Notes: generated from the sequence alone by a model not told the origin. 21,948 nucleotides of DNA from Breznakia sp. PF5-3 (GCF_029504745.1 NZ_JAQFIQ010000040.1:1-21948); one strand, 5' to 3'. Positions 3,101-17,143 are shown, counted from the stretch's first letter. Program-made: numbers and translations.

Positions 3101-5758
3101 ATGGAAGAAAAGGAGTATTATCGAGCGACTAGTTTAGAAGTTATAGAGGATTTAAAAACAAATGAGGAAAGAGGATTAACAAAAGAACAGGTACTTGAGA
3201 GACAAGAACAATATGGAAAGAATATACTGGAAACGGGTGAAAAGGTTTCAGTATGGAAAATATTATTTGAAAAGGTAAACAATATAATCGTGTATTTATT
3301 GCTTGCAGCAGCGATTGTATCATTTTTGATGAATGATCCAATTGAAGGAGTTGCTGTTTTAATAGCAGTATTTATTGCGGTTATTTTTGGTTTTGTGACA
3401 GAGTTTAAAGCACAAAAATCAGTGGAATCATTACAATCAATGATCAAGAGTACCACCAATGTATTACGTGATGGAAAGATAGAAGTAATCAATTCGGATG
3501 AATTGGTTGTAGGAGACATTATTAAGCTTTCTGGAGGAGATTCTATCAATGCAGATGCAAGATTAGTTCAAACTCAAAACTTTGCCTGTATTGAGTCTGC
3601 CTTGACTGGAGAGTCGGCTCCGGTGTCAAAGGATAGTGCATTGGTCTTTGATGAAGAAACATCACTTGGAGACCGAAAGAATTATGTATATGCAGGAACA
3701 GCTGTAACAAGAGGAAATGCAACGGCTGTTGTAACGGCAACAGGAATGCGAAGTGAAGTAGGTCAGATTAGTGATATGTTGAAACAACACAAGAAAGAGG
3801 AAACACCATTAAATAAAGAATTAAATCATTTAGGAAAATTATTGATTGGTTTAGCTGCTTTGTTTGCTGGAATTGTAATTGTTTTAGGTTTATTAACAGG
3901 TAGAGAATTAAGCTTTATTATTCAGATTGCATTAATTCTAGCAATCGCTGCAATTCCTGAGGCGATGCCAGCGGTTTCAACGATTACCCTAGCAAGAGGA
4001 ATGGCACGAATGAGTGAGCATAAAGCACTTGTGAAAAGCTTACCAGCGGTAGAAACATTAGGGTCTACCAGTGTTATCTGTAGTGACAAAACAGGTACTT
4101 TAACTGAGAATCAGATGACAGTTTCAAAAATCTATCTTTTAAATAAAGGTGTTTATAATGTCAGTGGTGGAGGATATCACTTTGAAGGCGATGTAAGCAA
4201 AGATGGAGAAAAGGTAGCACTTGAAAACGAACCAGAACTAAAAGACTTTATTTATGCATCTGTTTTAAATACCAATGCTACAATAAAAACAGAAGATAAT
4301 GGAGAGAAGGTAGTGATTGGTGATCCTACAGAAGGAGCACTTATCACCTTAGGTAAAAAGTTATCCATAGATCGAAACACATTAGAGGAAAATGGACATA
4401 TCAGAGTAGATGAGATTCCCTTTAATTCAAAGCTTAAATATATGATTACATTGTATGAACATGAAGGAAAAAGAAAAACATATATCAAAGGTGGTCCAGA
4501 TGTATTGTTGGATATGTCAAATCATAATCAAGATACAAAAGAAAGAATTGAGAAGGAAAACCAAGCATTAGCGAAACATGGCTTGCGTGTATTAGCCATT
4601 GGTGAAATTACAGATAATGAAGCAATTTATCATAATAATTGTGATGGTAATGTTAAGATACTAGGGCTTGTAGGAATCGTTGATCCACCAAGAGAAGATG
4701 TGAAAGAAGCTATTAAAATTTGTCAAGATGCAGGAATTCGTGTAAAGATGATTACAGGAGATCATCCACAAACAGCATCTATGATTGCCAAAGAAATTGG
4801 TATGGATGAATATGAAGAAACGATGACAGGATTTGAATTTGATGTTGCAGATAAGGATGAAAACTTTCCCAAAGAAGTATGTAAGACAGGTGTTTTCGCA
4901 AGAGTCTCACCAAGAAACAAGTTAGAGATTGTAAATATTTTGAAAGATAATGGAGAAGTTGTTGCGATGACAGGGGATGGGGTTAATGATGCTCCAGCAT
5001 TAAATGGTGCTGATATTGGTGTCGCCATGGGAATCCGTGGTACAGAGGTGGCAAAAGAAGCAGCTGATATGATTCTTACAAATGATCGGTTTTCTACAAT
5101 TATCAATGCAGTAAAAGAAGGTAGGATTATATTTGCCAATATTCGTAAGTTTGTATATTATTTATTTTCTTGTAACATGGTAGAGATTACAGCTATTATG
5201 CTGAGTTTGATATTCTTGTTACCAGATTTACCTGTACAGCCTCTACATATATTGTGGTTGAATTTGGTGGTTGATATTTTCCCAGCTATGTCATTGGGCT
5301 TTGAACCAGCAGAAGATAATATTATGAAACAACAACCAAGAGGGAAAGAAGAAGGTTTATTGACAAAGAAGTTTCTTGTAAGAATTCTTCTTAGTGGGGC
5401 TGTATTGGGAGTATCATCATTTGTGATTTATCAACTAATGTTGCTACGTGGAGCTCCGATTATAGAAGCACAAACAACTACTTTCACATTGATGGCAATT
5501 ATGCAACTATTGCATATTTTGAATGTTAGAAGAGAAAAAACATTTGGCTTGGATAAGTCATTACTTAAAAATAAATCAATGATATTCTCTATGTTGTTGG
5601 CAATAACATTACAACTTGTAGCAGTATATGTACCTGTATTTAATGACATACTAGGAACTGTACCATTACCATTTATTGATTGGGTATTAATCTTAGGAAT
5701 TTCAATTATTGCGACAATCTTAGTATATGTATTGAAAAAGGTATTTGCTTTAAAATAG
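3101..5758 (+). CDS. P-type cation-transporting ATPase, P2 (Ca2+-ATPase-like)
   Basis: Motifs LTGES, the phosphorylation site CSDKTGTLT, the hinge MTGDGVNDAPAL and IPEAMPAV in TM4 are present. The protein is 885 aa with N- and C-terminal TM bundles. Confidence 0.92.
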   Translation: MEEKEYYRATSLEVIEDLKTNEERGLTKEQVLERQEQYGKNILETGEKVSVWKILFEKVNNIIVYLLLAAAIVSFLMNDPIEGVAVLIAVFIAVIFGFVTEFKAQKSVESLQSMIKSTTNVLRDGKIEVINSDELVVGDIIKLSGGDSINADARLVQTQNFACIESALTGESAPVSKDSALVFDEETSLGDRKNYVYAGTAVTRGNATAVVTATGMRSEVGQISDMLKQHKKEETPLNKELNHLGKLLIGLAALFAGIVIVLGLLTGRELSFIIQIALILAIAAIPEAMPAVSTITLARGMARMSEHKALVKSLPAVETLGSTSVICSDKTGTLTENQMTVSKIYLLNKGVYNVSGGGYHFEGDVSKDGEKVALENEPELKDFIYASVLNTNATIKTEDNGEKVVIGDPTEGALITLGKKLSIDRNTLEENGHIRVDEIPFNSKLKYMITLYEHEGKRKTYIKGGPDVLLDMSNHNQDTKERIEKENQALAKHGLRVLAIGEITDNEAIYHNNCDGNVKILGLVGIVDPPREDVKEAIKICQDAGIRVKMITGDHPQTASMIAKEIGMDEYEETMTGFEFDVADKDENFPKEVCKTGVFARVSPRNKLEIVNILKDNGEVVAMTGDGVNDAPALNGADIGVAMGIRGTEVAKEAADMILTNDRFSTIINAVKEGRIIFANIRKFVYYLFSCNMVEITAIMLSLIFLLPDLPVQPLHILWLNLVVDIFPAMSLGFEPAEDNIMKQQPRGKEEGLLTKKFLVRILLSGAVLGVSSFVIYQLMLLRGAPIIEAQTTTFTLMAIMQLLHILNVRREKTFGLDKSLLKNKSMIFSMLLAITLQLVAVYVPVFNDILGTVPLPFIDWVLILGISIIATILVYVLKKVFALK

Positions 5759-5784: not shown

Positions 5785-5807
5785 TGTGTTTTATTTGGTT
5801 TAGAATA

Positions 5808-5836
5808 TTGAAAAAAGTATTTGTTCATGGTATCAT
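5808..5836 (+). promoter_or_regulatory. Candidate sigma-A promoter for the tRNA
   Basis: TTGAAA (5808-5813), 17-nt spacer, TATCAT (5831-5836) preceded by TGG (extended -10). It lies about 19 nt upstream of the tRNA 5' end. Confidence 0.5.
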
Positions 5837-5854
5837 TATCTAGCAGTGAAAATT

Positions 5855-5928
5855 AGGGGTGTAGTACAATGGTAGTATAACGGTCTCCAAAACCGCTGAT
5901 ACGGGTTCAATTCCTGTCACCCCTGCCA
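5855..5928 (+). tRNA. tRNA-Trp (anticodon CCA), with encoded 3' CCA
   Basis: Hand-folded 74-nt cloverleaf. Acceptor AGGGGTG/CACCCCT, D stem GTAC/GTAT, anticodon stem CGGT/ACCG with loop CTCCAAA, T stem ACGGG/CCTGT with loop TTCAATT, discriminator G plus CCA. Confidence 0.88.
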
Positions 5929-5940
5929 TAGAAATTTTAA

Positions 5941-5967
5941 CCCTTTATTCAAGGGCTTTTTTTATGC
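5941..5967 (+). terminator. Short terminator-like hairpin after the tRNA
   Basis: CCCTT-TATTC-AAGGG followed by CTTTTTTT. The stem is short, so this call is tentative. Confidence 0.45.
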
Positions 5968-6113
5968 CTTAATGAAAAATTCAGAAAAATCAAAATTATG
6001 ATTATAACTCTAGCAAAATTCAATAAGCGCTACTATGTTTATTGTATAAATGCAAAGGGTATATAATATATAGCAATTTATCAAAATAAAAAAAACGAAA
6101 TTATATTTCATAA

Positions 6114-6420
6114 GAGGAAAATAAAGATAGGAATGGTAATTTTATTAATTATGAGAGGTATACAGGTAAGAAGAAGATTAAAAGTAAAAAAGAAGTAGGG
6201 AAATTAGATAAGAAATTTAAAGAAAAACATGGAGAATATTGAAAAGAATGACCATAGTTCAAACATGTCAATTGAAGAAGCTCAAGAACTTTATTTCAGG
6301 GAAACAAAGGATTATCTGAAAGCAACTACTTTATATAAAGATGGTAAGTTGATGAGAAACTTTGGGCATTTATTCAATATGAAAATGTCATCAATTACAA
6401 GTAAAGATTTCAAATATTAA
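6114..6420 (+). pseudogene. Tyrosine-recombinase (phage integrase) N-terminal remnant, frameshifted and truncated
   Basis: One frame reads KDRNGNFINYERYTGKKKIKSKKEVGKLDKKFKEKHGEY* (arm-binding/AP2-like pattern). A shifted frame continues SIEEAQELYFRETKDYLKATTLYKDGKLMRNFGHLFNMKMSSITSKDFKY* (SAM-like core-binding pattern). No catalytic domain follows. Confidence 0.5.
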
Positions 6421-6813
6421 AAATTTTGTATTTTGTTAAATAATGATTCGACAGATTGGTATATTTTATTTGATTTTTAATAATAAAAAATATTTATAGT
6501 GGTCTTCCGTTTAAGTTGTTTGTTAAATAATTGGAGGTAAAAAAATAAGTTTAAATTATAATAACTTAATACCAACTGAGGACATTCCTACTTATCTTAA
6601 TGATGAGCAAAGCTAACCTAAGTTGTTGGAAATAACGATCTATTTAATAACAAAAGAAGTAGATTTTGAAAATTGCTCTTTAAATAGAAGCGACTATCAT
6701 TATGATAATTATAAAATCAATAAGGATCAAGATTATGTAAAAATTATGATGCTTTTTTTGATAATTGGTTTATAATAAGAAATGAAACATTTGGTGAATT
6801 ATAATGTTTTAAT

Positions 6814-7881
6814 TTACTCTTTAGTTTTAGGTTTGATAGGATTAGCAAATATTACTTCTTGTTTTGGAAAGCGAATACTATCATATATTGTGCAAAGGTT
6901 TTTCGCCAAATGAAAGTCAAGGTTTTGACTAAATATATATTTATAACTATTTTGTATAATAATTTGATTATATGAATCTACTTGTGTAATATTTTCAAGT
7001 ATCTTTATTTTCTTGTGATCTTTTTGCATTGCTTTTGCATGATATTCTTTTTCATATAGTACTAATAATATAGTTGGAGACAATGGGATAATAATTTCAA
7101 CTCCAAATGAATTTATCCCAGTGGTCGAAATGATAGGGTTAGATATGCGATTAAAAACAGAAATTATACTATCTGATGTATAAAATAATGATTCGGTTTT
7201 ATTTAAATAGAAAACCCATAAATGATTATAAAATCTTTCACTTAAATCATTAAGAAAAGTAGGATCCAATAAGAAACTTAGATGATAGGCTTTAGCTCTT
7301 TCTTTTTCAGATATTGGGCTATTAATATAAACGGAAACGTCTTCATTATTTGTTCTATAAATTAAGTCTTCATAAACCTGAGGAATAACCACCTCATGCA
7401 TATCCTTAAAAAATTTCCTATTTTTTGGAGTTCTAATAAATTGAATTGCAAGGAAAAGCGAAATATTTCTTTTCTCATTTTCATCAATGCAAAAGCAGTT
7501 ATTAACTTCCCATATTGAAAATTCTTGTATGTTAGCAATAACTTTTTTTATTGCATCTCCAGAAAAACTTTCAATATCAGCTAGATAGTTTTCAAAGAGA
7601 TTCTTTTTAAATATATCAGATAATTTAAGTTTTCCTTTAGATTTAAAAAAAGTACTCACTTTTAATTTTAATATTTCTTTTTTAGAAAAGTGTTTTCTAA
7701 TAGATTCGAAATCCAAATCATAAAAATAATTTTCAGATGCTATATTTCGAATGTTTTGTTTTTCTAATGTAAGTAAGCGCTCTTTTTCAAAAACATTAAT
7801 GTAAAATCCCTTTTTTATAGGAGTACTAAAATTTTTAAGATAAAAAATAGGAATATAATGTTGTTTTTTTGTATTATTCAT
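6814..7881 (-). CDS. DUF4238-like protein (candidate anti-phage effector)
   Basis: The N-terminus MNNTKKQHYIPIFYLKNFS matches the HY[IV]PxFYLxxF signature I associate with Pfam DUF4238. The protein is about 355 aa with no TM or signal peptide. The track starts at GTG 7893; ATG 7881 with the upstream AAGGAAAGG seems the more likely start. Confidence 0.6.
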   Translation of the reverse strand: MNNTKKQHYIPIFYLKNFSTPIKKGFYINVFEKERLLTLEKQNIRNIASENYFYDLDFESIRKHFSKKEILKLKVSTFFKSKGKLKLSDIFKKNLFENYLADIESFSGDAIKKVIANIQEFSIWEVNNCFCIDENEKRNISLFLAIQFIRTPKNRKFFKDMHEVVIPQVYEDLIYRTNNEDVSVYINSPISEKERAKAYHLSFLLDPTFLNDLSERFYNHLWVFYLNKTESLFYTSDSIISVFNRISNPIISTTGINSFGVEIIIPLSPTILLVLYEKEYHAKAMQKDHKKIKILENITQVDSYNQIIIQNSYKYIFSQNLDFHLAKNLCTIYDSIRFPKQEVIFANPIKPKTKE

Positions 7882-7902
7882 AGAGTATATCACCTTTCCT
7901 TG

Positions 7903-7930
7903 TTGAAAAAAAATTCAAATTTATTATAAT
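7903..7930 (+). promoter_or_regulatory. Near-consensus sigma-A promoter driving the ncRNA/RT unit
   Basis: TTGAAA (7903-7908), 16-nt spacer, TATAAT (7925-7930). The predicted TSS is near 7937. It lies only about 10-20 nt from the divergent DUF4238 start codon. Confidence 0.6.
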
Positions 7931-7936
7931 ATAATT

Positions 7937-8215
7937 ATAGTAGAACTGAGTTAACAATACTATAGGTTTTGCTAGCATTATTGCAAAGAAATTTGCGTTG
8001 ATTTTTTGTTGGGTTGAAAGAATTGAGGCTCGTCTTTGACGAGACGCAATTCTGGCCTGTTATGGAGTGTTTGTGACGCCCTTCGGACCCAAGGTCCTCG
8101 AGCTTGTCTACAAACACTGAGCCATCCCACCATGAGGCCAGGCAAATAGAGAATTATTGAGTTACTGGATCATGACATCCCTCTAATAGAAATTAGTTTT
8201 GAAAGGAGGGATGGA
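7937..8215 (+). ncRNA. Candidate retron-type non-coding RNA (msr-msd-like); boundaries uncertain
   Basis: Three consecutive structures precede the RT. First, hairpin 7967-7972/7983-7988. Second, stem 7993-7998/8044-8049 enclosing hairpin CTCGTC-TTT-GACGAG (8029-8043). Third, a 90-nt nested hairpin at 8052-8141. That hairpin has outer stem CTGGCCT/AGGCCAG, inner 9-bp stem AGTGTTTGT/ACAAACACT and apical GGACC-CAA-GGTCC. It is about 57% GC by hand count in otherwise AT-rich DNA. Confidence 0.5.
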
Positions 8216-8217
8216 AT

Positions 8218-8415
8218 ATGAAGAATAATCGATTTAAATTAATAATTATAATTATAATCATAATGGTTCTTCCTAAAGTAATGTATCCTCAGCTGTCAAA
8301 TGAAGCAATTGATTATTATTTTAATAGCTTACAGACGGCAATAACATTGTTTTTATTTTTTAGAGATGAAAATATAATGACTGTGGGATGTCATCACTTG
8401 AACATGTGCAGATAA
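8218..8415 (+). CDS. Hypothetical small hydrophobic protein (65 aa); may be non-coding
   Basis: A strong SD AAAGGAGGG sits 8 nt before the ATG. The N-terminal segment KLIIIIIIIMVLP and a second segment AITLFLFF are hydrophobic. The codons are low-complexity AT repeats, so a spurious ORF is possible. Confidence 0.25.
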   Translation: MKNNRFKLIIIIIIIMVLPKVMYPQLSNEAIDYYFNSLQTAITLFLFFRDENIMTVGCHHLNMCR

Positions 8416-8469
8416 GTATTGTTGTTCAATAATTTGTTTGATATTTGCTTGGCGTATTCATAATTAGGA

Positions 8470-9648
8470 ATGAAGGAAGATATGGATAAAATAAAAATTA
8501 ACAAGTCAGCTCTATATGCGTGTAGTAGTAAGGTATATTTAGCGAAAATACTAAGTAATTATAAAAAGGGAATTGTTATTAATCAAAGAGAGTTGAGGAG
8601 AGTAAAGCACTTTTTTGATAATGAAGATAAAGTTTTTTATAAATCAAAAACCACAGGAGAAATATTTAGTAATAAGCCTGCTAACTATTCTCCTAAAAAA
8701 TACAGAAAATTTAATGATCCTTCTATAAAAAGAAAAGAAGTACTAAGAAGATTGAATTTTTTTTTAAAACAAATTGAGACACCAAAGTATCTTTTTTCTG
8801 TAAAAGATAAAGACTACGTAAAGAATGCAAAAATTCATCGAGGGAACTCACACTACATTATGCTAGATATAACTAGTTTTTTTCCAAATTGCGATTATAG
8901 GAATATATTTGAATGGTTATTATCTGATTCAGGTCTTGCTATGAAGCCAGATATTGCAACATGTATATGTGATTTAGTAACCTCCCCTAGAAATGGACAA
9001 TATAGAGAATTACCACAAGGTTATCCTACAAGTACATTAATTGCATATTTTTCATATAAAAAAATGTTTGATGAAATTGCCACCTTAGCTAAGTTAAGAG
9101 GGTTAAAATTCAGTACATATGTTGATGATTTGACTTTTTCATATAATGATAATATTCAACTAGATAATGAGTTTTTCATTTTAGAAATTAAGCAATTAGT
9201 TTCTAAATACGGACATAGTTTAAATGATAAAGAGAAGATATATGATTGTAGTAAACATTATAGTAGCAGTTATAATCCATTAATAACAGGAGTTTTTGTT
9301 AAACGATGGAAAATAAGAGCATCAAGAAAGTTACATAGTAAAATGATAAAAAAATACAATAAGCTCATAAACCTGAAGATAATAGATAGTACAACATATT
9401 TTGAGGCTTGGGAAATGTATCAAAGTCTTCAAGGAATTTGTATTTCAATAAACACAATTGAACCTCAAAAAACAAAAAAGAATCGTCAACACATTTTGAA
9501 TTATATTGAAAATAACAAGAAAAAGTTTCCTTTTGAAACAAATATAAAAAGAATTAAAGAATTAAGATTAGAGAAAAAAATATATGATGCTTACAGAAGT
9601 GGGACGTTGCGAGAATTTATTAGTAAGCATAGCAATATAATTTTTTAA
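8470..9648 (+). CDS. Retron-type reverse transcriptase
   Basis: The motifs are collinear with retron RTs (compared with Ec86 RT from memory). They are VKNAKIHRGNSHYIMLDITSFFPN (NAxxH plus DxxxFF), ELPQGYPTST (LPQG), FSTYVDDLTFS (YxDD catalytic motif) and PLITGVFVKRWKIRASRK (VTG-like motif). The alternative start ATG 8482 has better SD spacing. Confidence 0.85.
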   Translation: MKEDMDKIKINKSALYACSSKVYLAKILSNYKKGIVINQRELRRVKHFFDNEDKVFYKSKTTGEIFSNKPANYSPKKYRKFNDPSIKRKEVLRRLNFFLKQIETPKYLFSVKDKDYVKNAKIHRGNSHYIMLDITSFFPNCDYRNIFEWLLSDSGLAMKPDIATCICDLVTSPRNGQYRELPQGYPTSTLIAYFSYKKMFDEIATLAKLRGLKFSTYVDDLTFSYNDNIQLDNEFFILEIKQLVSKYGHSLNDKEKIYDCSKHYSSSYNPLITGVFVKRWKIRASRKLHSKMIKKYNKLINLKIIDSTTYFEAWEMYQSLQGICISINTIEPQKTKKNRQHILNYIENNKKKFPFETNIKRIKELRLEKKIYDAYRSGTLREFISKHSNIIF

Positions 9649-9756
9649 TAAACTCTTTTTTACTACTATAGGCCAGTTTTTCTGTAATATCATATATAAT
9701 ATTTTTAAATAAATTGTCGAATAAAAACTTATACTATTATAGTCAGGAGGAATATC

Positions 9757-9980
9757 ATGAAAGAAACATATAAATTAGTTAAAAATATCATTTCTTGCAA
9801 TAAATGTAAAGATATAATCGAAAGCAAATCTATTCATGATTATGAAGAATGTAAGTGTGAAGCTGTGCAATTGATGGTGGATTAGAGTATCAAAAAATCA
9901 CTGGCTTTGATGAAGATATAGATTTAAGTCCAAGTGTTTATCAAGATACTGAAAGTGGTAACTTTGTTACCTATGATTAG
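9757..9980 (+). pseudogene. Frameshifted small zinc-ribbon protein gene
   Basis: SD AGGAGG (9745-9750) precedes ATG 9757. Frame 1 reads MKETYKLVKNIISCNKCKDIIESKSIHDYEECKCEAVQLMVD* (stop at 9885). A shifted frame continues (A)IDGGLEYQKITGFDEDIDLSPSVYQDTESGNFVTYD* to 9980. This is consistent with a 1-nt indel near 9865-9872. Confidence 0.5.
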
Positions 9981-10025
9981 ACATTAGAAAAGAAAGAGTC
10001 GTATTTAGAAAATATGAGATGGATT

Positions 10026-10050
10026 CGGTTAATTCTGTTCACCCTTGCCA
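10026..10050 (+). repeat. Degenerate direct copy of the tRNA-Trp 3' end (att-like islet border)
   Basis: CGGTTAATTCTGTTCACCCTTGCCA compared with tRNA CGGGTTCAATTCCTGTCACCCCTGCCA (5902-5928). Similarity is roughly 80% with small indels, and both copies are followed by AT and a hairpin plus T-run. Confidence 0.55.
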
Positions 10051-10063
10051 TGAATGAAATAAA

Positions 10064-10089
10064 GCCTTGTAATAAGGTTTTTTTATTTT
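10064..10089 (+). terminator. Terminator-like hairpin after the tRNA 3' fragment (probably the ancestral tRNA terminator)
   Basis: GCCTT-GTAAT-AAGGT followed by a T-run of nine. Its architecture parallels 5941-5967. Confidence 0.45.
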
Positions 10090-10302
10090 TTATAACTAAA
10101 AATGGCCGAAATTATGTAAAATGTCTTTTTTTTGTATATGATAATAGTGAAGTAGAGCAATATTGGCATCTATTAAAATAAGAATAGTATGATAAACTAT
10201 ACAGAAGAAGAATATTTAGCTATACAAAATTATAAAAAAATAGGATTTATAAAACTTTTTATAATTTTAATCGTTAAATAAGTGAAAGGAGGATATTAAG
10301 AT

Positions 10303-12646: not shown

Positions 12647-13366
12647 ATGAGATTTATGAAACTACGAATGGATGGAAATACGATGAACAATGATAAAGAA
12701 AAAACAACAACATTAAAGCATAGAATTCTAACTGTTACTGGGATAGTATTGAGTATCATTTTGATACCCATGCTTATCATAAATGTAACGTTAATTGTTA
12801 AAAGTTATACAAACCCAGAAGAAGTGCCAAGCATTGGTGGGGTTGTTCCAATGATTGTATTAACTGATTCAATGTATCCTAAGATTCACTCTGGAGATCT
12901 TATCATTTGCGATATTGTAGATGCAGAAGATGTTAAAAAGGGTGATATCATAACGTACTTTGATCCTAAAAGTGATAATGATGCCGTTGTAACTCACCGT
13001 GTAGTGAAAGTTATAGACAAAGATGGCGATGTATCATTTGTAACAAAAGGGGATGCAAATAATACGAACGATGATGAAGCGGTTACAGAGAAAGACCTAA
13101 TTGGAGTATACAATTTTAGAATTGCTGGTGCAGGAGACATAGCGATGTTTATGCAAACAACACCAGGATTGTTAATTTGTGTAGTTACTCCGCTAGCTTT
13201 ACTTATAGGGTATGATATTATGCGCAGACGTAAATATGATAAAACCAACAAACTCGAAACAGAAGTACTAATGGCAGAACTAGAGGAACTTAAAAAAGCA
13301 CAAAATATTAAAACTGATGTGACTTCAAGTGAAGATAGTTCAGGTGATATAGAAGAGAATAAATAG
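12647..13366 (+). CDS. sipW: SipW-type (archaeal/ER-type) signal peptidase I, copy 1
   Basis: An N-terminal TM is followed by VLTDSMYPKIHSGDLII (catalytic Ser), VVTHRVV (catalytic His), TKGDANNTNDD and a C-terminal TM. The layout is collinear with B. subtilis SipW. The start is ambiguous among four in-frame ATGs between 12647 and 12683. Confidence 0.8.
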   Translation: MRFMKLRMDGNTMNNDKEKTTTLKHRILTVTGIVLSIILIPMLIINVTLIVKSYTNPEEVPSIGGVVPMIVLTDSMYPKIHSGDLIICDIVDAEDVKKGDIITYFDPKSDNDAVVTHRVVKVIDKDGDVSFVTKGDANNTNDDEAVTEKDLIGVYNFRIAGAGDIAMFMQTTPGLLICVVTPLALLIGYDIMRRRKYDKTNKLETEVLMAELEELKKAQNIKTDVTSSEDSSGDIEENK

Positions 13367-13519
13367 GTTATGTACAGAGAAGGAGAAAGGGTTAAACAAA
13401 GTTTCTCTTTTTTTGCCTGCCACAGCAAAAAAAGTGGAATATAGCTGCAATGCAGTTGCATCTCTTTATATTAGAGATGAAGATTGAAATTTAATACAAA
13501 ATTATTTTTAGGAGGAAAA

Positions 13520-14584
13520 ATGAAAAAGAATAAATCGATGAGAATAGCATCTGGATTATTAGTTTTAACACTAATAACAATGTCTATTATAAGTGGAACA
13601 TTTGCTAAATATACAACAGCGGGAAACGGTGATAATCAAGCGCGTGTTGCAAAATGGGGTGTCACTATCGGAGTTGATAAAGACTTCTTTGGTCAAAACT
13701 ATGATGATAAAGCAAATGGAAATACAATATCAAAAGACGCTAAAAGCGCAACAGTTAGTGTTGTATCATCAACTGCTGATAACGTAGTTGCACCAGGTAC
13801 TAAAAATACAAGTTTTAATTTAGGTATTACTGGTAAACCTGAAGTTGATGGAGTAATTAATGGGGAATTAGCTTCACAAAACTTTTCAATAAGTGGAGAA
13901 AAATACTACAGAATGAAAGAAGTTGCTATTACATCAGCAGCAGAATATACAGCATATAAGAGTTCAGCAGGGGCATTAGACTTATATGTAATTCGTGAAT
14001 ACAGTGGTAGTGATGTATATGCAAAAACAAATGGATTTACAAAGGCAGGAGATAAATTCTATGCGGCTGAAGTGGCTTGTGATTTAAAAAAGGCTGATGG
14101 CTCAACAGGGCCTAATTATTATCCAGTTGTATTCAAATTAACAGATCAAGCTGGTAATGATTGGAATGGTTACACAAATCCAACAGGATCAGCAGCAATT
14201 CATACAGATACGCTAGCTCAAGTTACAACAAAGTTTAATAGTATTTATAAAACTTCTGGTGTAAATTTTGAGGCAGGAGAAAATTTAAGTACAAAAGCAT
14301 CATTACCTAAAATTTCTTGGGAATGGGCATTCACAAGTGATGATTCGACAACAAATGGAAAATATGATGCTGCAGATACTTTAATTGGTGATGTCATTGC
14401 GGCACAACAAGGTGATACTAATATAGATTTAAAGCTTATTGCTAGTACAGGATGGTCTGGAAATGAAAGCAATTTCGCAAAAGAAAGTGGACTTGAAGGG
14501 CCTTATTTAGGAATGCCTTTTAATGCAAATTCTAAACTTGAATTGAAATTCAATTTAAAACTTACTGTAACACAAAGAGATTAG
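13520..14584 (+). CDS. TasA/camelysin-like secreted protein with a SipW-cognate signal peptide, paralog 1
   Basis: SD GGAGG is followed by ATG 13520 (the track starts 12 codons earlier). The signal MKKNKSMRIASGLLVLTLITMSIISGTFAKYTT resembles the TasA GTFAxF cleavage region. The APGT motif and beta-rich composition also fit. Confidence 0.7.
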   Translation: MKKNKSMRIASGLLVLTLITMSIISGTFAKYTTAGNGDNQARVAKWGVTIGVDKDFFGQNYDDKANGNTISKDAKSATVSVVSSTADNVVAPGTKNTSFNLGITGKPEVDGVINGELASQNFSISGEKYYRMKEVAITSAAEYTAYKSSAGALDLYVIREYSGSDVYAKTNGFTKAGDKFYAAEVACDLKKADGSTGPNYYPVVFKLTDQAGNDWNGYTNPTGSAAIHTDTLAQVTTKFNSIYKTSGVNFEAGENLSTKASLPKISWEWAFTSDDSTTNGKYDAADTLIGDVIAAQQGDTNIDLKLIASTGWSGNESNFAKESGLEGPYLGMPFNANSKLELKFNLKLTVTQRD

Positions 14585-14625
14585 TATACATCATTTAATG
14601 TATACATAGTATATTACTTTTATAT

Positions 14626-14665
14626 CTATACTCGCAGTTTTGTGGCGGGACTGTGAGTATAGTTT
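14626..14665 (+). terminator. Intra-cluster hairpin (terminator or attenuator) after the first TasA-like gene
   Basis: 13-bp stem CTATACTCGCAGT / ACTGTGAGTATAG (one G-U pair) with an 11-nt loop, followed only by TTT and then an A-run. Confidence 0.5.
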
Positions 14666-14726
14666 AAAAAAATAGTTAATAATTAAAGAATTAATTGTTG
14701 ACTATTTCTTTAAATGAGGGCTATAT

Positions 14727-15590
14727 ATGATAAAGAAAACAACAAGAACAATATGGGGATTTATAGCAGTTTTACTGTTTTTTATCGTATCCACAATATC
14801 TGTTTTGGCTGATAAGTTGGTAGAATCATCGCAAGGTGATGAAGAGATAATTTCACTTTTTCCAAGTAAGGACTCTACTAGCAAGGTGAAAGTTGGAAAT
14901 GATACACCATCATCTATCCAAGTTCAAAGTAATAGGAATTATCGAACAAGTTATACACCAGTAACAGTTAGTGATGACAAGAAAGTTTGGAAAACACAAA
15001 CGGATATCGAGATTTTTAAGCTTTCCTATAAAAATGGAAGCGATAAAGTTTCGGTTTTATCTTCGGATGGAAGTGAAGTGATTGCACCTGGAACGGAGAA
15101 TTCCTATACATTTAATATAAAAAACAATAGTAAATCTTCCGTAAAATATAAAATGACATGTGAAGTTTTTGTAGAACCAGAAAATTTATTTTTTCCTGTT
15201 GAAATGTCTTTTGAAAGTTATACAGGAAATTACTTGTTAGGTAATAGTAATTCCTTTGTAAATGTAGAAGATATTTCTTTAGTTGAAGATTCAGGAGTAT
15301 TATCAGCAAATAATTATGCTTACTATACATTGAATTGGCAATGGCCATTTGAATGGGATAATGATACATATGATACATATTTAGGAGATCGAGCAGTTAA
15401 TGAAGATTTAACAGTAAGTGTTGTTATAAAAACATTGATTGAAGATGATGGAAAGCCTAGCAAATCTGGTGGTGGGATCAGTTCACCAAGTACAGGGGAC
15501 GCAACCAACAAGACCTTATTAAGTGTATTAGCTATCGTATCTCTTGGTAGCATTGTTGTTATACTAGGTAAGAAATATCGTAAGGTGTAG
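14727..15590 (+). CDS. Cell-wall-anchored TasA-fold paralog with an SPSTG sorting signal
   Basis: An N-terminal signal or TM is present. The internal motifs VIAPGTENSYTFNIKNNS and YTLNWQWPFEW are shared with the flanking TasA-like proteins. The C-terminus is SPSTGD, then a hydrophobic stretch, then KKYRKV. Confidence 0.7.
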   Translation: MIKKTTRTIWGFIAVLLFFIVSTISVLADKLVESSQGDEEIISLFPSKDSTSKVKVGNDTPSSIQVQSNRNYRTSYTPVTVSDDKKVWKTQTDIEIFKLSYKNGSDKVSVLSSDGSEVIAPGTENSYTFNIKNNSKSSVKYKMTCEVFVEPENLFFPVEMSFESYTGNYLLGNSNSFVNVEDISLVEDSGVLSANNYAYYTLNWQWPFEWDNDTYDTYLGDRAVNEDLTVSVVIKTLIEDDGKPSKSGGGISSPSTGDATNKTLLSVLAIVSLGSIVVILGKKYRKV

Positions 15591-15600
15591 GTATGTTTAA

Positions 15601-16194
15601 ATGAGAAACAAATTAGGTTCAAAAATAAAATCAAACGTAATTCTGAGAAGAGTGTTGTTATCTTTAGTTGGGCTATTTCTAGGGGTTAATATATATTTGT
15701 TTAATGCTACTAGTATTGTTGGTAATAAACTTCCTATGCCTTTTGGATATGGCGCTGCAGTTGTTTTATCAGGAAGTATGGAGCCAGCATTATCAGTGAA
15801 TAATCTGATTATTGTAGAAGAATCAAAAGCATATGATAAAGGAGACATTGTTGTTTATCAAGATGGTAATGAATTGATTGTTCATCGTATCGTTAGCATA
15901 GATAAAGATAGCGTTATAACTAAAGGTGATGCAAATAGTGTTTCTGATAATCCTATTAGAAAATCAAGTATTAAAGGAAAAGTTATTGTAAGTATTCCTT
16001 TTATAGGTGTATTAATAAACATATTAAAGAGTCCTTTAGGGACAATAACTATTTTAATATTAGCCTTTATGTTATTAGAACGTTCATATAAAAACGATAA
16101 AAACAAAAATTTGGAGAACCTTGATATCATTAGGCAAGAGATTGAGAAGATAAAGGAAAGTTATGAAATGGAGGGCAATCATGAAGAAAAATAA
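15601..16194 (+). CDS. sipW: SipW-type signal peptidase I, copy 2
   Basis: VVLSGSMEPAL (catalytic Ser), LIVHRIV (catalytic His), TKGDANSVSDNP and N- and C-terminal TMs match B. subtilis SipW closely. Confidence 0.85.
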   Translation: MRNKLGSKIKSNVILRRVLLSLVGLFLGVNIYLFNATSIVGNKLPMPFGYGAAVVLSGSMEPALSVNNLIIVEESKAYDKGDIVVYQDGNELIVHRIVSIDKDSVITKGDANSVSDNPIRKSSIKGKVIVSIPFIGVLINILKSPLGTITILILAFMLLERSYKNDKNKNLENLDIIRQEIEKIKESYEMEGNHEEK

Positions 16195-17143
16195 GTCAAT
16201 AAAAATAGTAACTTTTCTCTTTGTTGCTATGTTTGTAACCACAACGTTAGTTAGTAATGTATTTGCACAATACATAAGCAATACTGATAAAGATGATTCT
16301 GCTGGTATTGCACAATGGGGTGTAGTTACAAGTGCGAAAGGGTCTCTTTTTACTCAAAAAGATGCAACTGGAAAAAATATCATATATCCTGGAGATAAAA
16401 GTAAGGATACAGGTTTAACAATCAATATAAGTGGTACTCCTCAAGTAAATGGTGTAATAACAGCGACGGTTAAACATCAAAATATCTTTCTAGGTGCAGG
16501 ACAATGGGGTTTGATGACTAAACAAGAGGATATGTCTTCTGCAAAGTATAAAGCGAATACCTACTATACACTTAGTAATGGAAAATATGTATTAGATACA
16601 AGTAGTGTATTTACAGCAAGTAAAACATATTATATGTTAGAAAATAATGTTACTGTTGATACTAGTGGATATTGGCCAGTAAATTTTAAATTAACAGGTG
16701 AAAGTAGTACTGGATATGTTGAGTCAGATTCTAATAAAACAAAGACGGATACGCTAGATGGTGTTAGCGGTACAATTGAAGCGGCTTTGTTTGATTCGCT
16801 ATTTAAAGCAAATGAAAATCTTGCATATAAATATGGACTTCATAACCAGAGTATCACATGGGAATGGCAAAACTGTACAAGTGATTGTAGTAAGGGAATA
16901 TCCGTTATAGAAGGGGAAAGCACACCTCTTTGTGATAATTGTAAACGGGATGTAATTTTACAAAATTTGATTGATCAAAAAAATGATCCTTCCATTATAG
17001 TTGTACTTAAGGATACGACAGATACAACTGGTAAAACATTTAAGACACCAACAGCTGCAACAGAGCAAGGTGAGTACAAAGATGGTAATTATAACTTGTA
17101 TGTAAGTTTTAATTTGAAAGTTATTGCAAGTCAAGAAGATTAA
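16181..17143 (+). CDS. TasA/camelysin-like secreted protein, paralog 2
   Basis: SD GGAGGG is followed by ATG 16181, which overlaps the sipW-2 stop. The signal is MKKNKSIKIVTFLFVAMFVTTTLVSNVFAQYISNTD. Blocks are shared with paralog 1 (AQWGV, YPGD, YWPVNFKLTG, ITWEWQ, FNLKVIASQED). Confidence 0.7.
   Translation: MKKNKSIKIVTFLFVAMFVTTTLVSNVFAQYISNTDKDDSAGIAQWGVVTSAKGSLFTQKDATGKNIIYPGDKSKDTGLTINISGTPQVNGVITATVKHQNIFLGAGQWGLMTKQEDMSSAKYKANTYYTLSNGKYVLDTSSVFTASKTYYMLENNVTVDTSGYWPVNFKLTGESSTGYVESDSNKTKTDTLDGVSGTIEAALFDSLFKANENLAYKYGLHNQSITWEWQNCTSDCSKGISVIEGESTPLCDNCKRDVILQNLIDQKNDPSIIVVLKDTTDTTGKTFKTPTAATEQGEYKDGNYNLYVSFNLKVIASQED

Follow-up and report, generated by a model that had tools for sequence, protein, structure and literature searches.

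A probable Type VI-like retron without an HTH gene and a probably independent DUF4238 module in a decayed tRNA-Trp islet of Breznakia

The window analysed here is the whole 21,948-nt stretch of DNA from Breznakia sp. PF5-3 (NZ_JAQFIQ010000040.1:1-21948). It contains an islet of ~4.1 kb that is bordered on the left by tRNA-Trp and on the right by an attR-like degenerate copy of the tRNA 3' half with a terminator (Table 1); the alignment behind this right border scores 57, whereas shuffled sequences average 31.6 (sd 3.6) and never exceed 48. The islet bears signs of decay. Its integrase is a doubtful fragment (Pfam E = 0.00098, below the family cut-off), and its DUF7695 zinc-ribbon gene is frameshifted, the Pfam match covering only profile positions 1–33 of 58 while the remainder continues in frame +2. 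The tRNA islet and the frameshifted zinc-ribbon ORF had both been pointed out in the initial annotation. No DUF7695 gene was found beside the RT across the RT family, and the pseudogene is placed outside the retron. What is left in the islet falls into two parts: a putative Type VI-like retron of reverse transcriptase (RT), structured RNA and small protein (SP), spanning about 7903–9648 on the + strand, and a candidate DUF4238 defence module on the - strand (6814–7881).

Table 1. Features of the islet, with positions counted from the first nucleotide of the window.
Feature	Position	Strand	Evidence or remark
tRNA-Trp (CCA), left islet border	5855..5928	+	ARAGORN, Rfam
DUF4238 protein, 355 aa, M2475_001845, single-gene defence candidate	6814..7881	-	Pfam PF14022
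Retron RNA promoter, sigma-A/sigma-70-type: TTGAAA, 16-nt spacer, TATAAT	7903..7930	+	11/12 positions
P0, 5' hairpin	7938..7974	+	hairpin presenting IR1a predicted in 16/16 representatives
IR1a, apical part of P0, AACAAUACU	7953-7961	+	predicted to pair with 8416-8424
P1, short hairpin of msr-like RNA part	7982..7997	+	predicted in the family, with differing stems
P2, variable-length hairpin	8019..8053	+	minimum-free-energy (MFE) fold of the window; equivalent in most family members
Long hairpin, candidate msd (core 8066-8118)	8062..8125	+	RNAalifold helices 1 and 2
IR2a, 5' arm of helix enclosing SP ORF	8137..8161	+	predicted to pair with 8425-8453
Anti-Shine-Dalgarno (anti-SD) segment AUGACAUCCCUCU	8172..8184	+	two alternative predicted partners: SD, SD mimic
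Shine-Dalgarno (SD) region of SP ORF AAAGGAGGGAUG	8202..8213	+	predicted hairpin with 8176-8184 (MFE fold, per-sequence duplexes)
SP ORF, 65 aa, candidate toxin/effector, GenBank M2475_001846	8218..8415	+	position, RBS, dN/dS, NCBI annotation
SD mimic GGGAUGUCAU, in 3' part of SP coding sequence	8385..8394	+	alternative predicted partner of anti-SD
IR1b AGUAUUGUU, directly 3' of SP stop codon	8416..8424	+	predicted to pair with P0 apical segment
IR2b, 3' arm of long-range helix	8425..8453	+	end 13-28 nt ahead of RT start
Retron RT; ORF from ATG 8470, likely start ATG 8482	8470..9648	+	Pfam, PADLOC, PDB/Foldseek
DUF7695 zinc-ribbon pseudogene, frameshifted, outside retron	9757..9983	+	Pfam
Degenerate tRNA-Trp 3' half copy + terminator, attR-like right border	10022..10086	+	local alignment

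To characterize the RT we combined motif, profile and structural comparisons. The second of its two ATG codons is the likelier start: it stands behind an AAGGAAG RBS and gives a protein of 388 aa, the same as that of NCBI, and the sequence is 100% identical to M2475_001847 of Breznakia sp. PF5-3. The motifs NAKIH, LDITSFFPN, LPQGYPTS, YVDD and ITG can all be read, Pfam RVT_1 matches (2e-10), and every PADLOC match is to a retron RT model, with RT_VI best (3.5e-57, 191.8 bits, profile positions 1–278 of 279) and the runner-up at 86 bits. RT_VI also matches 20/20 aligned family members. Judged from these RT_VI profile scores, the protein would belong to the Type VI (clade 3) lineage. Profile matches in the PDB (E <= 0.001) are named retron RTs almost throughout, and when an AF2 model (pLDDT 87) was searched with Foldseek the best 18 matches were RTs of canonical tripartite retrons, ranking above AbiK, DRT and group II intron RTs. 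No fused effector domain was found on the RT. The initial annotation had claimed a retron-type RT with the full motif series and no fused effector, and was right on each count.

Relatives of the RT form 102 clusters at 90% identity (E <= 1e-50), most of them from gut Bacillota and uncultured MAGs. The family comparison covers 32 loci with upstream sequence, in 16 clusters with one representative each; 22 of these loci have at least 2 kb upstream. The distant RT relatives recovered include two bona fide Type VI loci, L028 and L029, which carry an HTH_VI gene. Compared with their RTs, the window RT has an N-terminal insertion of ~21 aa and ~60 more C-terminal residues, the last ~50 forming a helical extension in which no HTH match was found.

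The structured RNA that had been claimed upstream of the RT is clearly there: the intergenic fold is far more stable than that of shuffled sequence (z = -5.7). Its promoter is the strongest match within 5800–10300, a -10-like TATGATATAAT box occurs at the equivalent aligned position across the RT family, and transcription probably starts near 7937. A nucleotide profile built without the window matches 7907–8468 (E = 6.8e-22), its only significant match in the window. The RNA architecture is conserved and covaries: RNAalifold gave 38 pairs with 94.4% of cells paired, compared with 33–44% in slid controls, and 28 of the 38 pairs carry compensatory changes, a result equalled by 0 of 500 shuffles. 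Among the predicted helices, the P1 stem is UGCAAA/UUUGCG in the window and CGG/CCG, GCAGU/ACUGU or CAAG/CUUG in other members, while the candidate msd accounts for 17 pairs, 13 with compensatory changes. This long hairpin is the likely template for reverse transcription, by analogy with Retron-Vpa2, whose msDNA of 63–86 nt maps onto the long stem-loop of its hybrid RNA (bioRxiv 10.1101/2025.10.22.683967, 10.64898/2026.04.27.721009). The complementarity between msd cDNA and riboregulator proposed for Vpa2 was no better than in shuffles when sought in the window.

Two long-range helices are predicted to link the two sides of the SP ORF. The IR1 duplex is found in 16/16 representatives with at least 5 different compensatory variants; in relatives the IR1b equivalent falls within the last SP codons, and the constraint therefore acts at the RNA level. 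The IR2 helix comprises 21 pairs (95–100% of cells paired, 15 pairs compensatory), which 0 of 500 shuffles reached. The two helices cross, and would form either a pseudoknot or mutually exclusive states. A further predicted choice concerns the anti-SD segment, which can pair with the SD at 8205–8213 (-16.8 kcal/mol) or with the SD mimic at 8385–8394 (-17.3 kcal/mol). Each of the two alternatives is predicted in 16/16 representatives, with covariation. For P0 loop/IR1b, anti-SD/SD and anti-SD/mimic alike, cognate partners form stabler duplexes than non-cognate partners do; for the last the means are -15.6 and -10.6 kcal/mol, the cognate partner being best or near-best for most sequences.

Between the structured RNA and the RT gene lies the 65-aa SP ORF, with a strong RBS AAAGGAGGG. 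It contradicts two statements of the initial annotation: the absence of any intact co-directional gene or effector, and the DUF4238 gene as the sole intact neighbour within the islet. An ORF of 60–74 aa with a strong RBS stands directly 5' of the RT in all family loci having upstream sequence. The SP ORF is coding: dN/dS among close relatives is 0.05–0.5, indicating purifying selection. Between subgroups omega reaches 0.4–1.2 and the sequences evolve fast; the similarity of the window SP to the family SPs is not significant (1.8 bits), and no significant similarity to Pfam or PADLOC models was seen either. Its design is a basic N-terminus followed by a strongly hydrophobic transmembrane-like helix (maximum Kyte-Doolittle hydropathy 3.05), and this design is kept, along with the length, across 16 RT clusters. 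The assignment of the window SP, which is a candidate, is based on position, size, composition and RNA context, and by analogy the peptide would be toxic.

One module is thus common to 32/32 related RT loci (16 RT clusters) having upstream sequence, in the order promoter, multi-hairpin ncRNA, small hydrophobic ORF with sequestered Shine-Dalgarno, enclosing long-range helices and RT. We compared it with the Type VI retrons Retron-Vpa2, Retron-Eco12 and Retron-Sen3 (Mestre 2020 clade 3; bioRxiv 10.1101/2025.10.22.683967, 10.64898/2026.04.27.721009), whose layout is a hybrid RNA, a small-protein toxin and an RT (same two preprints). The likeness begins with RT_VI as the best RT model and extends to the order of promoter, msr-msd-like structured RNA, small ORF and RT; to the embedding of the small ORF in what would be one structured hybrid transcript; to a covariation-supported inverted repeat flanking the ORF, with the RBS predicted to be sequestered in a stem; and to a small protein, a candidate in the window, that is hydrophobic, without known domain and rapidly diverging. 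There are also clear differences. The window family presents its 5' pairing arm in a hairpin loop, and this pairing crosses the second long-range helix; its coding sequence contains a conserved SD mimic; and it comes from gut Bacillota (Erysipelotrichales, Bacilli, 'Tenericutes' MAGs). The window SP combines a basic N-terminus with a transmembrane-like helix, whereas the Type VI SP is a three-helix bundle with a C-terminal hydrophobic helix.

Finally, the window family has no Cro/C1 HTH gene between SP and RT. None of the islet ORFs matched HTH_VI with the PADLOC models, tblastn with two HTH_VI proteins gave no match close to the RT, whether in the window or across the family loci, and the first RT ATG follows the SP stop after only 54 nt. 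This counts against the Type VI reading, since 78% of Type VI entries carry such a gene (cluster 2_1, PADLOC HTH_VI), upstream of or overlapping the RT. In both Type VI systems that have been studied the HTH is functionally essential: in Sen3 it serves as antitoxin, and in Vpa2 it represses reverse transcription (bioRxiv 10.1101/2025.10.22.683967, 10.64898/2026.04.27.721009). Canonical tripartite retrons (Ec86/Eco1, Ec67/Eco2, Eco8, Ec78) resemble the window in RT fold, in the NAxxH, YxDD and VTG-like motifs and in an adjacent ncRNA gene with stem-loops and inverted repeats, but there a separate effector is checked by abundant msDNA, whereas the candidate effector of the window is encoded inside the retron RNA. 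In our reading the retron represents a known type, Type VI, in a form that lacks the HTH gene, and we consider it quite probable that RT, RNA and SP make up a self-contained Type VI-like retron beside an independent DUF4238 module.

Three other explanations were weighed. Given the decayed genes of the islet, the module may be no more than an inactive remnant, in which the RT and RNA look intact and the SP has drifted until the toxin no longer works. The poor integrase fragment and the frameshifted DUF7695 gene fit such a history, as does the insignificant similarity of the window SP to its relatives; moreover, the activity of this SP is uncertain because, relative to the closest relative, it carries small indels towards its 3' end and stops earlier. 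Yet the window RT keeps every residue that is invariant in 20 aligned RTs (the window included), YVDD among them, every RNA helix is intact, and the cognate duplexes of the window are the most stable among all combinations tested. The SP ORF is likewise open and of normal length with its strong RBS, the same locus is retained on five Breznakia contigs, and the SP sequence appears under four GenBank accessions, two named strains (PF5-3 and PM6-1) among them. We therefore regard a dead remnant as unlikely. Equally, the SP ORF might be a leader or regulatory ORF that remodels the RNA or controls RT expression, the retron acting via a host factor or the cDNA itself. Its fast evolution between subgroups, the lack of detectable homology across subgroups and to Pfam or PADLOC models, and the RNA-level constraint on much of its 3' coding sequence would all suit a leader; the purifying selection among close relatives and the constant length and design do not, and in Retron-Vpa2 and Retron-Sen3 an equally divergent SP is a demonstrated toxin (bioRxiv 10.1101/2025.10.22.683967, 10.64898/2026.04.27.721009). 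A mere leader role thus seems quite improbable.

The third explanation concerns the neighbouring gene. Its product matches PF14022 over the full length of the profile (5.6e-34, 118 bits against a cut-off of 27, positions 1–279 of 281), which confirms the DUF4238 identity given at the outset; PADLOC v2.0.0 returned no match for this protein. DefenseFinder presumably names the single-gene system Rst_DUF4238. The initial annotation correctly described DUF4238 as a stand-alone anti-phage gene, as the gene alone protects against T7 and was found in a P2-like prophage hotspot (Rousset 2022, PMC9122126). The window protein resembles that system in being full-length for PF14022 and in standing alone in a mobile islet/defence hotspot, but its relationship to the E. 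coli protein that was tested is only distant. DUF4238 and the RT are not associated: a DUF4238 gene lies beside only 1/32 homologous RT loci (L015), an RT is found in 0/6 loci of DUF4238 homologs, these homologs occur in varied contexts with no common neighbour, and in Mestre 2020 DUF4238 is nowhere among the retron partners. That DUF4238 acts as effector in a new tripartite retron, co-regulated through overlapping divergent promoters, is therefore hardly credible. In its favour, the gene is immediately adjacent (start codon 22 bp from the retron -35 box), candidate minus-strand promoters lie within the 5' part of the retron RNA, L015 has DUF4238 directly upstream of its retron RNA, and the missing HTH partner leaves an imaginable vacant role. 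Against it, DUF4238 is absent from 31/32 RT loci, five of which have an RT sharing at least 90% identity with the L015 RT; in L015 the gene is co-directional, unlike the divergent pair of the window, and overlaps the end of an MmeI-type R-M gene; the two DUF4238 proteins share only 25% identity; the four nearest DUF4238 homologs all lack an RT neighbour; a DUF4238 gene suffices on its own (PMC9122126); and the retron already has a conserved embedded ORF.

The RT-ncRNA-DUF4238 retron type proposed in the initial annotation is accordingly not supported, in view of the DUF4238-free RT loci, the RT-free DUF4238 homologs and the embedded SP ORF; its premise of an effector-less retron was wrong. The alternative offered there, that of two defence genes stacked in the islet and independent of each other, is the one that the evidence supports. 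DUF4238 thus appears to be a separate stand-alone candidate defence gene and not a part of the retron; it would have its own promoter and have only intergenic DNA in common with the retron. As a side observation, DUF4238 adjoins the RT family twice (in the window and in L015), which is above the expectation for a random gene, yet is what defence-island clustering would give. Altogether, the ~4.1-kb stretch at tRNA-Trp is a decayed integrative islet of Breznakia that probably holds two independent anti-phage modules.

For the Type VI-like retron these features suggest a mechanism. A single promoter would drive a hybrid RNA of ~520 nt, with a 5' multi-hairpin non-coding part followed by the SP ORF, and with the RT gene directly after it; two long-range pairings would join the 5' domain to the sequence just past the SP stop. 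The SP Shine-Dalgarno would be locked by the anti-SD hairpin, and the SD mimic could capture the anti-SD instead. In an uninfected cell the RT would be bound to the RNA and the RNA fold would repress SP translation, by analogy with Retron-Vpa2 and Retron-Sen3. Upon phage infection, RT-made cDNA may accumulate and/or the RNA may be remodelled; the triggers in the systems studied are phage recombination proteins or RecBCD inhibition (bioRxiv 10.1101/2025.10.22.683967, 10.64898/2026.04.27.721009). The freed SD would then allow a small membrane-active peptide to be made, leading to cell arrest or death and an aborted infection. In this scheme cDNA synthesis, the triggering event and the direction in which the RNA switches are all presumed by analogy. 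With no HTH protein in the lineage, the RNA switch and the RT would have to provide control by themselves. A similar design is known from the hok/sok type I toxin-antitoxin system, in which a small hydrophobic peptide is encoded by an mRNA with long-distance 5'/3' pairing and a Shine-Dalgarno hidden by an anti-SD. The window RNA is predicted to have the same combination of hydrophobic peptide, end pairing and hidden SD; it differs in showing no evident antisense RNA, in having no sequence relationship to hok/sok and in its release signal, which is presumed to be the RT or cDNA rather than 3' processing.

More broadly, the family may represent a sizeable Gram-positive Type VI-like lineage without HTH, in which toxin control is entirely RNA-based and the RT, with its additional segments at the N- and C-terminus, is the only protein partner, a proposal that we put forward tentatively and hold to be possible rather than probable. 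Control would then lie in a three-way switch between anti-SD, SD and the in-coding SD mimic, together with a loop-to-tail pseudoknot stacking on the long-range helix. If this is true, the lineage would have dispensed with the HTH protein that restrains the toxin or reverse transcription in both studied Type VI systems.

The RT ORF and every motif that the initial annotation had named in it are present in the sequence, and the HMM check proposed there returned Pfam RVT_1 (2e-10). The window RT, 100% identical to M2475_001847 of Breznakia sp. PF5-3, matched the PADLOC model RT_VI best (3.5e-57, 191.8 bits, over the whole 279-position profile), with RT_III-A second at 86 bits. A profile of the RT family searched against the PDB (E <= 0.001) retrieved almost exclusively chains named retron RTs, and the 18 best structural matches of an AlphaFold model of the RT (pLDDT 87) were likewise retron RTs, with AbiK, DRT and group II intron RTs ranking below them. 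The start codon is likely ATG 8482: it has an AAGGAAG RBS in front, its N-terminus agrees with the closest homolog, and its product is the 388 aa given by NCBI, while the ORF-finder start lies at 8470.

The initial annotation had seen no intact co-directional effector, and the divergent protein as the only intact neighbour in the islet. The spacer upstream of the RT in fact holds an intact, co-directional 65-aa ORF (8218–8415; SP, for small protein), preceded by a near-perfect RBS and annotated in GenBank as M2475_001846; this ORF was the one element overlooked in sequence-level observations that were otherwise right. Every family locus having upstream sequence contains an ORF of 60–74 aa with a strong RBS, on the same strand as the RT and stopping 45–60 nt ahead of it. 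The encoded peptides share a design, with a short basic N-terminus followed by a strongly hydrophobic helix and then a second, less hydrophobic segment. They diverge fast, and dN/dS values of 0.05–0.5 between close relatives show that selection acts on a translated ORF. The window SP matches the shared design (Kyte-Doolittle hydropathy maximum 3.05), and its 3' end is somewhat aberrant. Since it had no significant sequence similarity to the family SPs (1.8 bits) and no match among Pfam or PADLOC models, we identified it by position and context.

The structured RNA seen in the initial annotation was confirmed: the spacer (7894–8469) folds with z = -5.7, and a nucleotide profile of the family, made with the window excluded, matched 7907–8468 (E = 6.8e-22), the rest of the window giving nothing significant. 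The helix formed by IR2a and IR2b spans the entire SP ORF. For the 38 RNAalifold pairs, which make up the long hairpin and IR2, 94.4% of cells were paired versus 33–44% when partners were slid, and compensatory double changes were seen at 28 of 38 pairs versus 7–12 in the slid controls; these values were attained in 0 of 500 shuffles. Because MAFFT loses the register of the P0 loop/IR1b and of the anti-SD arms, where column-based covariation counts failed, we computed these duplexes separately for each sequence and compared them with non-cognate combinations. In 16/16 representatives the apex of P0 pairs at or just past the SP stop codon (IR1), and this duplex occurs in five or more distinct compensatory forms. 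All 16 also have the anti-SD/SD pairing, and in each of them the extended anti-SD can pair with a mimic of the SD that lies within the 3' part of the SP coding sequence. The mean advantage of cognate duplexes over cross-subgroup arms was 2.3 kcal/mol for IR1, 3.8 for anti-SD/SD and 5.0 for anti-SD/mimic, and for the window arms the cognate partner was best in every duplex comparison. As IR1 and IR2 cross, they would either coexist, as a loop-to-tail pseudoknot stacked on IR2, or represent states that alternate. The anti-SD is unable to hold the SD and the mimic simultaneously, so the arrangement looks like a translational switch. Covariation in this family is unusually clear, both for the enclosing helices and for the mutually exclusive anti-SD/SD/mimic arrangement. 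Rfam contained no family matching the retron RNA, even at E <= 1.

Features of the retron RNA, the RT and the surrounding islet
Feature	Position	Remarks
Promoter-like site TTGAAA-16-TATAAT	7903–7930	strongest in the region; at the position of the relatives' -10 box
P0 (5' hairpin)	7938–7974	first element after the promoter
P1	7982–7997	after P0
P2	8019–8053	after P1
Long hairpin	8062–8125	after P2; recovered by RNAalifold
IR2a	8137–8161	after the long hairpin; IR2 helix recovered by RNAalifold
Anti-SD/SD hairpin	8176–8213	between IR2a and the SP ORF
IR1b	8416–8424	after the SP ORF
IR2b	8425–8453	after IR1b
RT C-terminal extension	9469–9645	residues 334–392; A374 invariant; Y375, L380 and F383 nearly invariant
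tRNA-Trp	5855–5928	found with ARAGORN and Rfam; left side of the islet
Degenerate gapped copy of tRNA-Trp 3' half and terminator	10022–10086	compared with 5898–5965; attR-like right end
63-aa ORF	6229–6420	doubtful phage-integrase N-terminal SAM-like domain (Pfam E = 0.00098, below family cut-off)
DUF7695 zinc-ribbon gene	9757–9983	split by a frameshift near 9875–9885

Two further observations concern this RNA. Over 25 nt, the anti-SD region (8170–8194) shares 76% identity with the tRNA-Trp 3' end and the next bases (5912–5936; TCATGACATCCCTCTAATAGAAATT against TCCTGTCACCCCTGCCATAGAAATT), a resemblance that is probably due to chance in AT-rich DNA. The ORF finder also reported 'ORFs' of 55–61 aa over the G+C-richer candidate msd hairpin, at 7935–8145 (-) in the window and at ~5507–5698 (+) in the relatives' loci L003–L009 (for example MLKFMGRWEICKQINAMLDVCG...); they reflect the conserved RNA and are artefacts, not genes.

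In Type VI retrons, a structured msr-msd RNA and the ORF of a small-protein toxin form one 'hybrid RNA', with an inverted repeat around the ORF and the RBS hidden in a stem (10.1101/2025.10.22.683967, 10.64898/2026.04.27.721009). According to these preprints, phage-induced msDNA build-up derepresses toxin translation in Retron-Vpa2, while the toxin of Retron-Sen3 is produced constitutively and neutralised by an HTH protein; the HTH is functionally essential in both systems and occurs in 78% of Type VI entries (Sen3 paper). The window's family resembles Type VI in its RT lineage and in the design of its RNA and ORF but, unlike canonical members, has no HTH: with two HTH_VI proteins as tblastn queries, no match turned up beside the RT of any family locus, whereas the HTH_VI gene is present in L028 and L029, two canonical Type VI loci from Bacteroidota (RT_VI 236–251 bits). 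The retron is therefore a new, HTH-less variant of this recently characterised kind and not a plain member of it. A second difference concerns Vpa2, for which direct repeats have been proposed to make the msDNA complementary to the riboregulator; such complementarity was undetectable in the window's family. Duplex energies of the putative msd cDNA with the sequence preceding the SP start were no better than those of shuffles (z between -1.1 and +1.1), and the window's 6-nt CAUCCC repeat lacks conservation; we therefore rejected Vpa2-style complementarity.

The family RTs are ~100 aa longer than those of L028 and L029, with a ~21-aa N-terminal insertion and ~60 residues beyond the C-terminus, the final ~50 being a helical extension. 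This conserved extension is missing from the RTs of HTH-associated Type VI retrons. That it might be a hidden HTH is speculation: the 59-aa extension had no significant PDB sequence match (best E = 0.17), its AF2 model (pLDDT 78) gave zero Foldseek matches, and with neither sequence nor fold in the PDB lending support we discarded the idea. Separately, a second Bacillota group of RT_VI class (~230 bits, 337–338 aa) was seen in Salinibacillus/Virgibacillus (L025 5531–6879, L027 3206–4499). It lacks an HTH gene, and an upstream ORF of 106–112 aa, which encodes a hydrophobic segment, runs into the start of the RT gene; this group may represent a further Type VI-like lineage without an HTH.

A protein search with the RT yielded 102 homolog clusters that were full-length or nearly so (E <= 1e-50, 38–57% identity) and one marginal partial match (31% identity). 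From genomes and assemblies we collected 32 family loci, corresponding to 16 RT clusters at >= 90% identity, with hosts that are mostly gut Bacilli, Erysipelotrichaceae and 'Tenericutes' MAGs. Their flanks vary by locus and include type I and type III restriction genes, an MmeI-type enzyme, and tyrosine and serine recombinases; hence the conserved unit is RNA, small ORF and RT, and this unit moves among defence islands and mobile elements. Some downstream neighbours are subgroup-specific: starting ~300 nt downstream of the RT, a ~165-aa protein and then a large serine recombinase in L002, L005, L008 and L009, and a minus-strand pair of TnpV-like small proteins in L015, L018 and L020. This suggests that the retron rides on differing mobile elements.

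The main alternative, put forward in the initial annotation, was that the RT and its RNA work with the divergent DUF4238 gene. Such a DUF4238-coupled retron would be a new retron type; the evidence speaks against it. The minus-strand protein, 100% identical to M2475_001845, is indeed a full-length DUF4238 (5.6e-34) starting at ATG 7881. The neighbourhood comparison that had been proposed was negative: tblastn with the window protein found a DUF4238 gene in 1 of the 32 family loci. In that locus, L015, the gene runs in the same direction as the retron and follows an MmeI-type restriction-modification gene whose end it overlaps; its product shares only 25% identity with the window protein. Five loci with an RT >= 90% identical to the L015 RT are flanked by different genes. 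The protein search from the DUF4238 side retrieved only four homologs beyond the window's own (26–36% identity), in four different contexts, none with an RT. Adjacency thus occurs in 2 of 17 RT clusters (the 16 of the family and the window's own), as is expected from the clustering of defence genes in islands and not from a functional unit, and neighbourhood analysis from both sides led us to reject DUF4238 as the retron's partner. The divergent promoters do share the spacer; for the suggested co-regulation, nothing beyond proximity is indicated. DUF4238 is not among the retron-associated genes of Mestre et al. 2020, and one such gene on its own, taken from a P2-like hotspot, conferred strong resistance to T7 (Rousset et al. 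2022, PMC9122126). The fallback reading of two stacked defence systems is the correct one. As a side observation, the MmeI-family type IIG gene of L015 (1587–5241, 929 aa) overlaps the DUF4238 start by 17 nt, which suggests an operon; a general association of DUF4238 with restriction-modification is possible.

Both systems lie in low-GC DNA (window GC ~30%) between housekeeping genes for an ABC transporter, a P-type ATPase, a signal-peptidase-like protein, a GntR regulator and PTS components. A direct-repeat search for att sites overlooked the copy of the tRNA-Trp 3' half because of its indels; gapped local alignment recovered it with a score of 57, against 31.6 +/- 3.6 in shuffles. The tRNA-Trp and this degenerate copy therefore delimit the retron/DUF4238 region as a ~4.1 kb islet inserted at tRNA-Trp, containing a 63-aa integrase-like fragment, the DUF4238 gene (-), the retron and the frameshifted DUF7695 zinc-ribbon gene. 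The integrase-like fragment, which showed no similarity to integrases adjoining related retrons, is probably a leftover of the islet's integrase. In the DUF7695 gene, frame 0 terminates with ...CKCEAVQLMVD* and frame +2 carries on with AIDGGLEYQKITGF...; we rejected it as a one-time retron effector because it adjoins the RT in no family locus. Outside the islet, the signal-peptidase-like gene (12647–13366) is followed by three ORFs of 287–366 aa without Pfam match (13484–17143); the N-terminus of the first resembles a signal peptide, and the three have no connection with the retron.

For the HTH-less retron, analogy with Vpa2 and Sen3 suggests how it may work. The RT would bind the hybrid RNA, and in the resting state translation of SP would be blocked by the anti-SD hairpin. 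Upon a phage cue, cDNA copied from the long hairpin might accumulate, or the RNA might be remodelled otherwise, so that the anti-SD would shift to the mimic or be displaced in another way. The small hydrophobic peptide would then be produced and stop the cell.

The retron is of moderate specialist interest. Judging from their rules, tools that demand RT_VI and HTH_VI together would probably miss it, and it cautions that a missing effector can be a small ORF hidden within 'non-coding' retron RNA. The design of a toxin gene inside the retron RNA appears, with SP as a candidate toxin, to reach Bacillota, where it would work with no HTH. The family may thus offer a compact natural model in which reverse transcription would be coupled to translational toxin release without a protein repressor.
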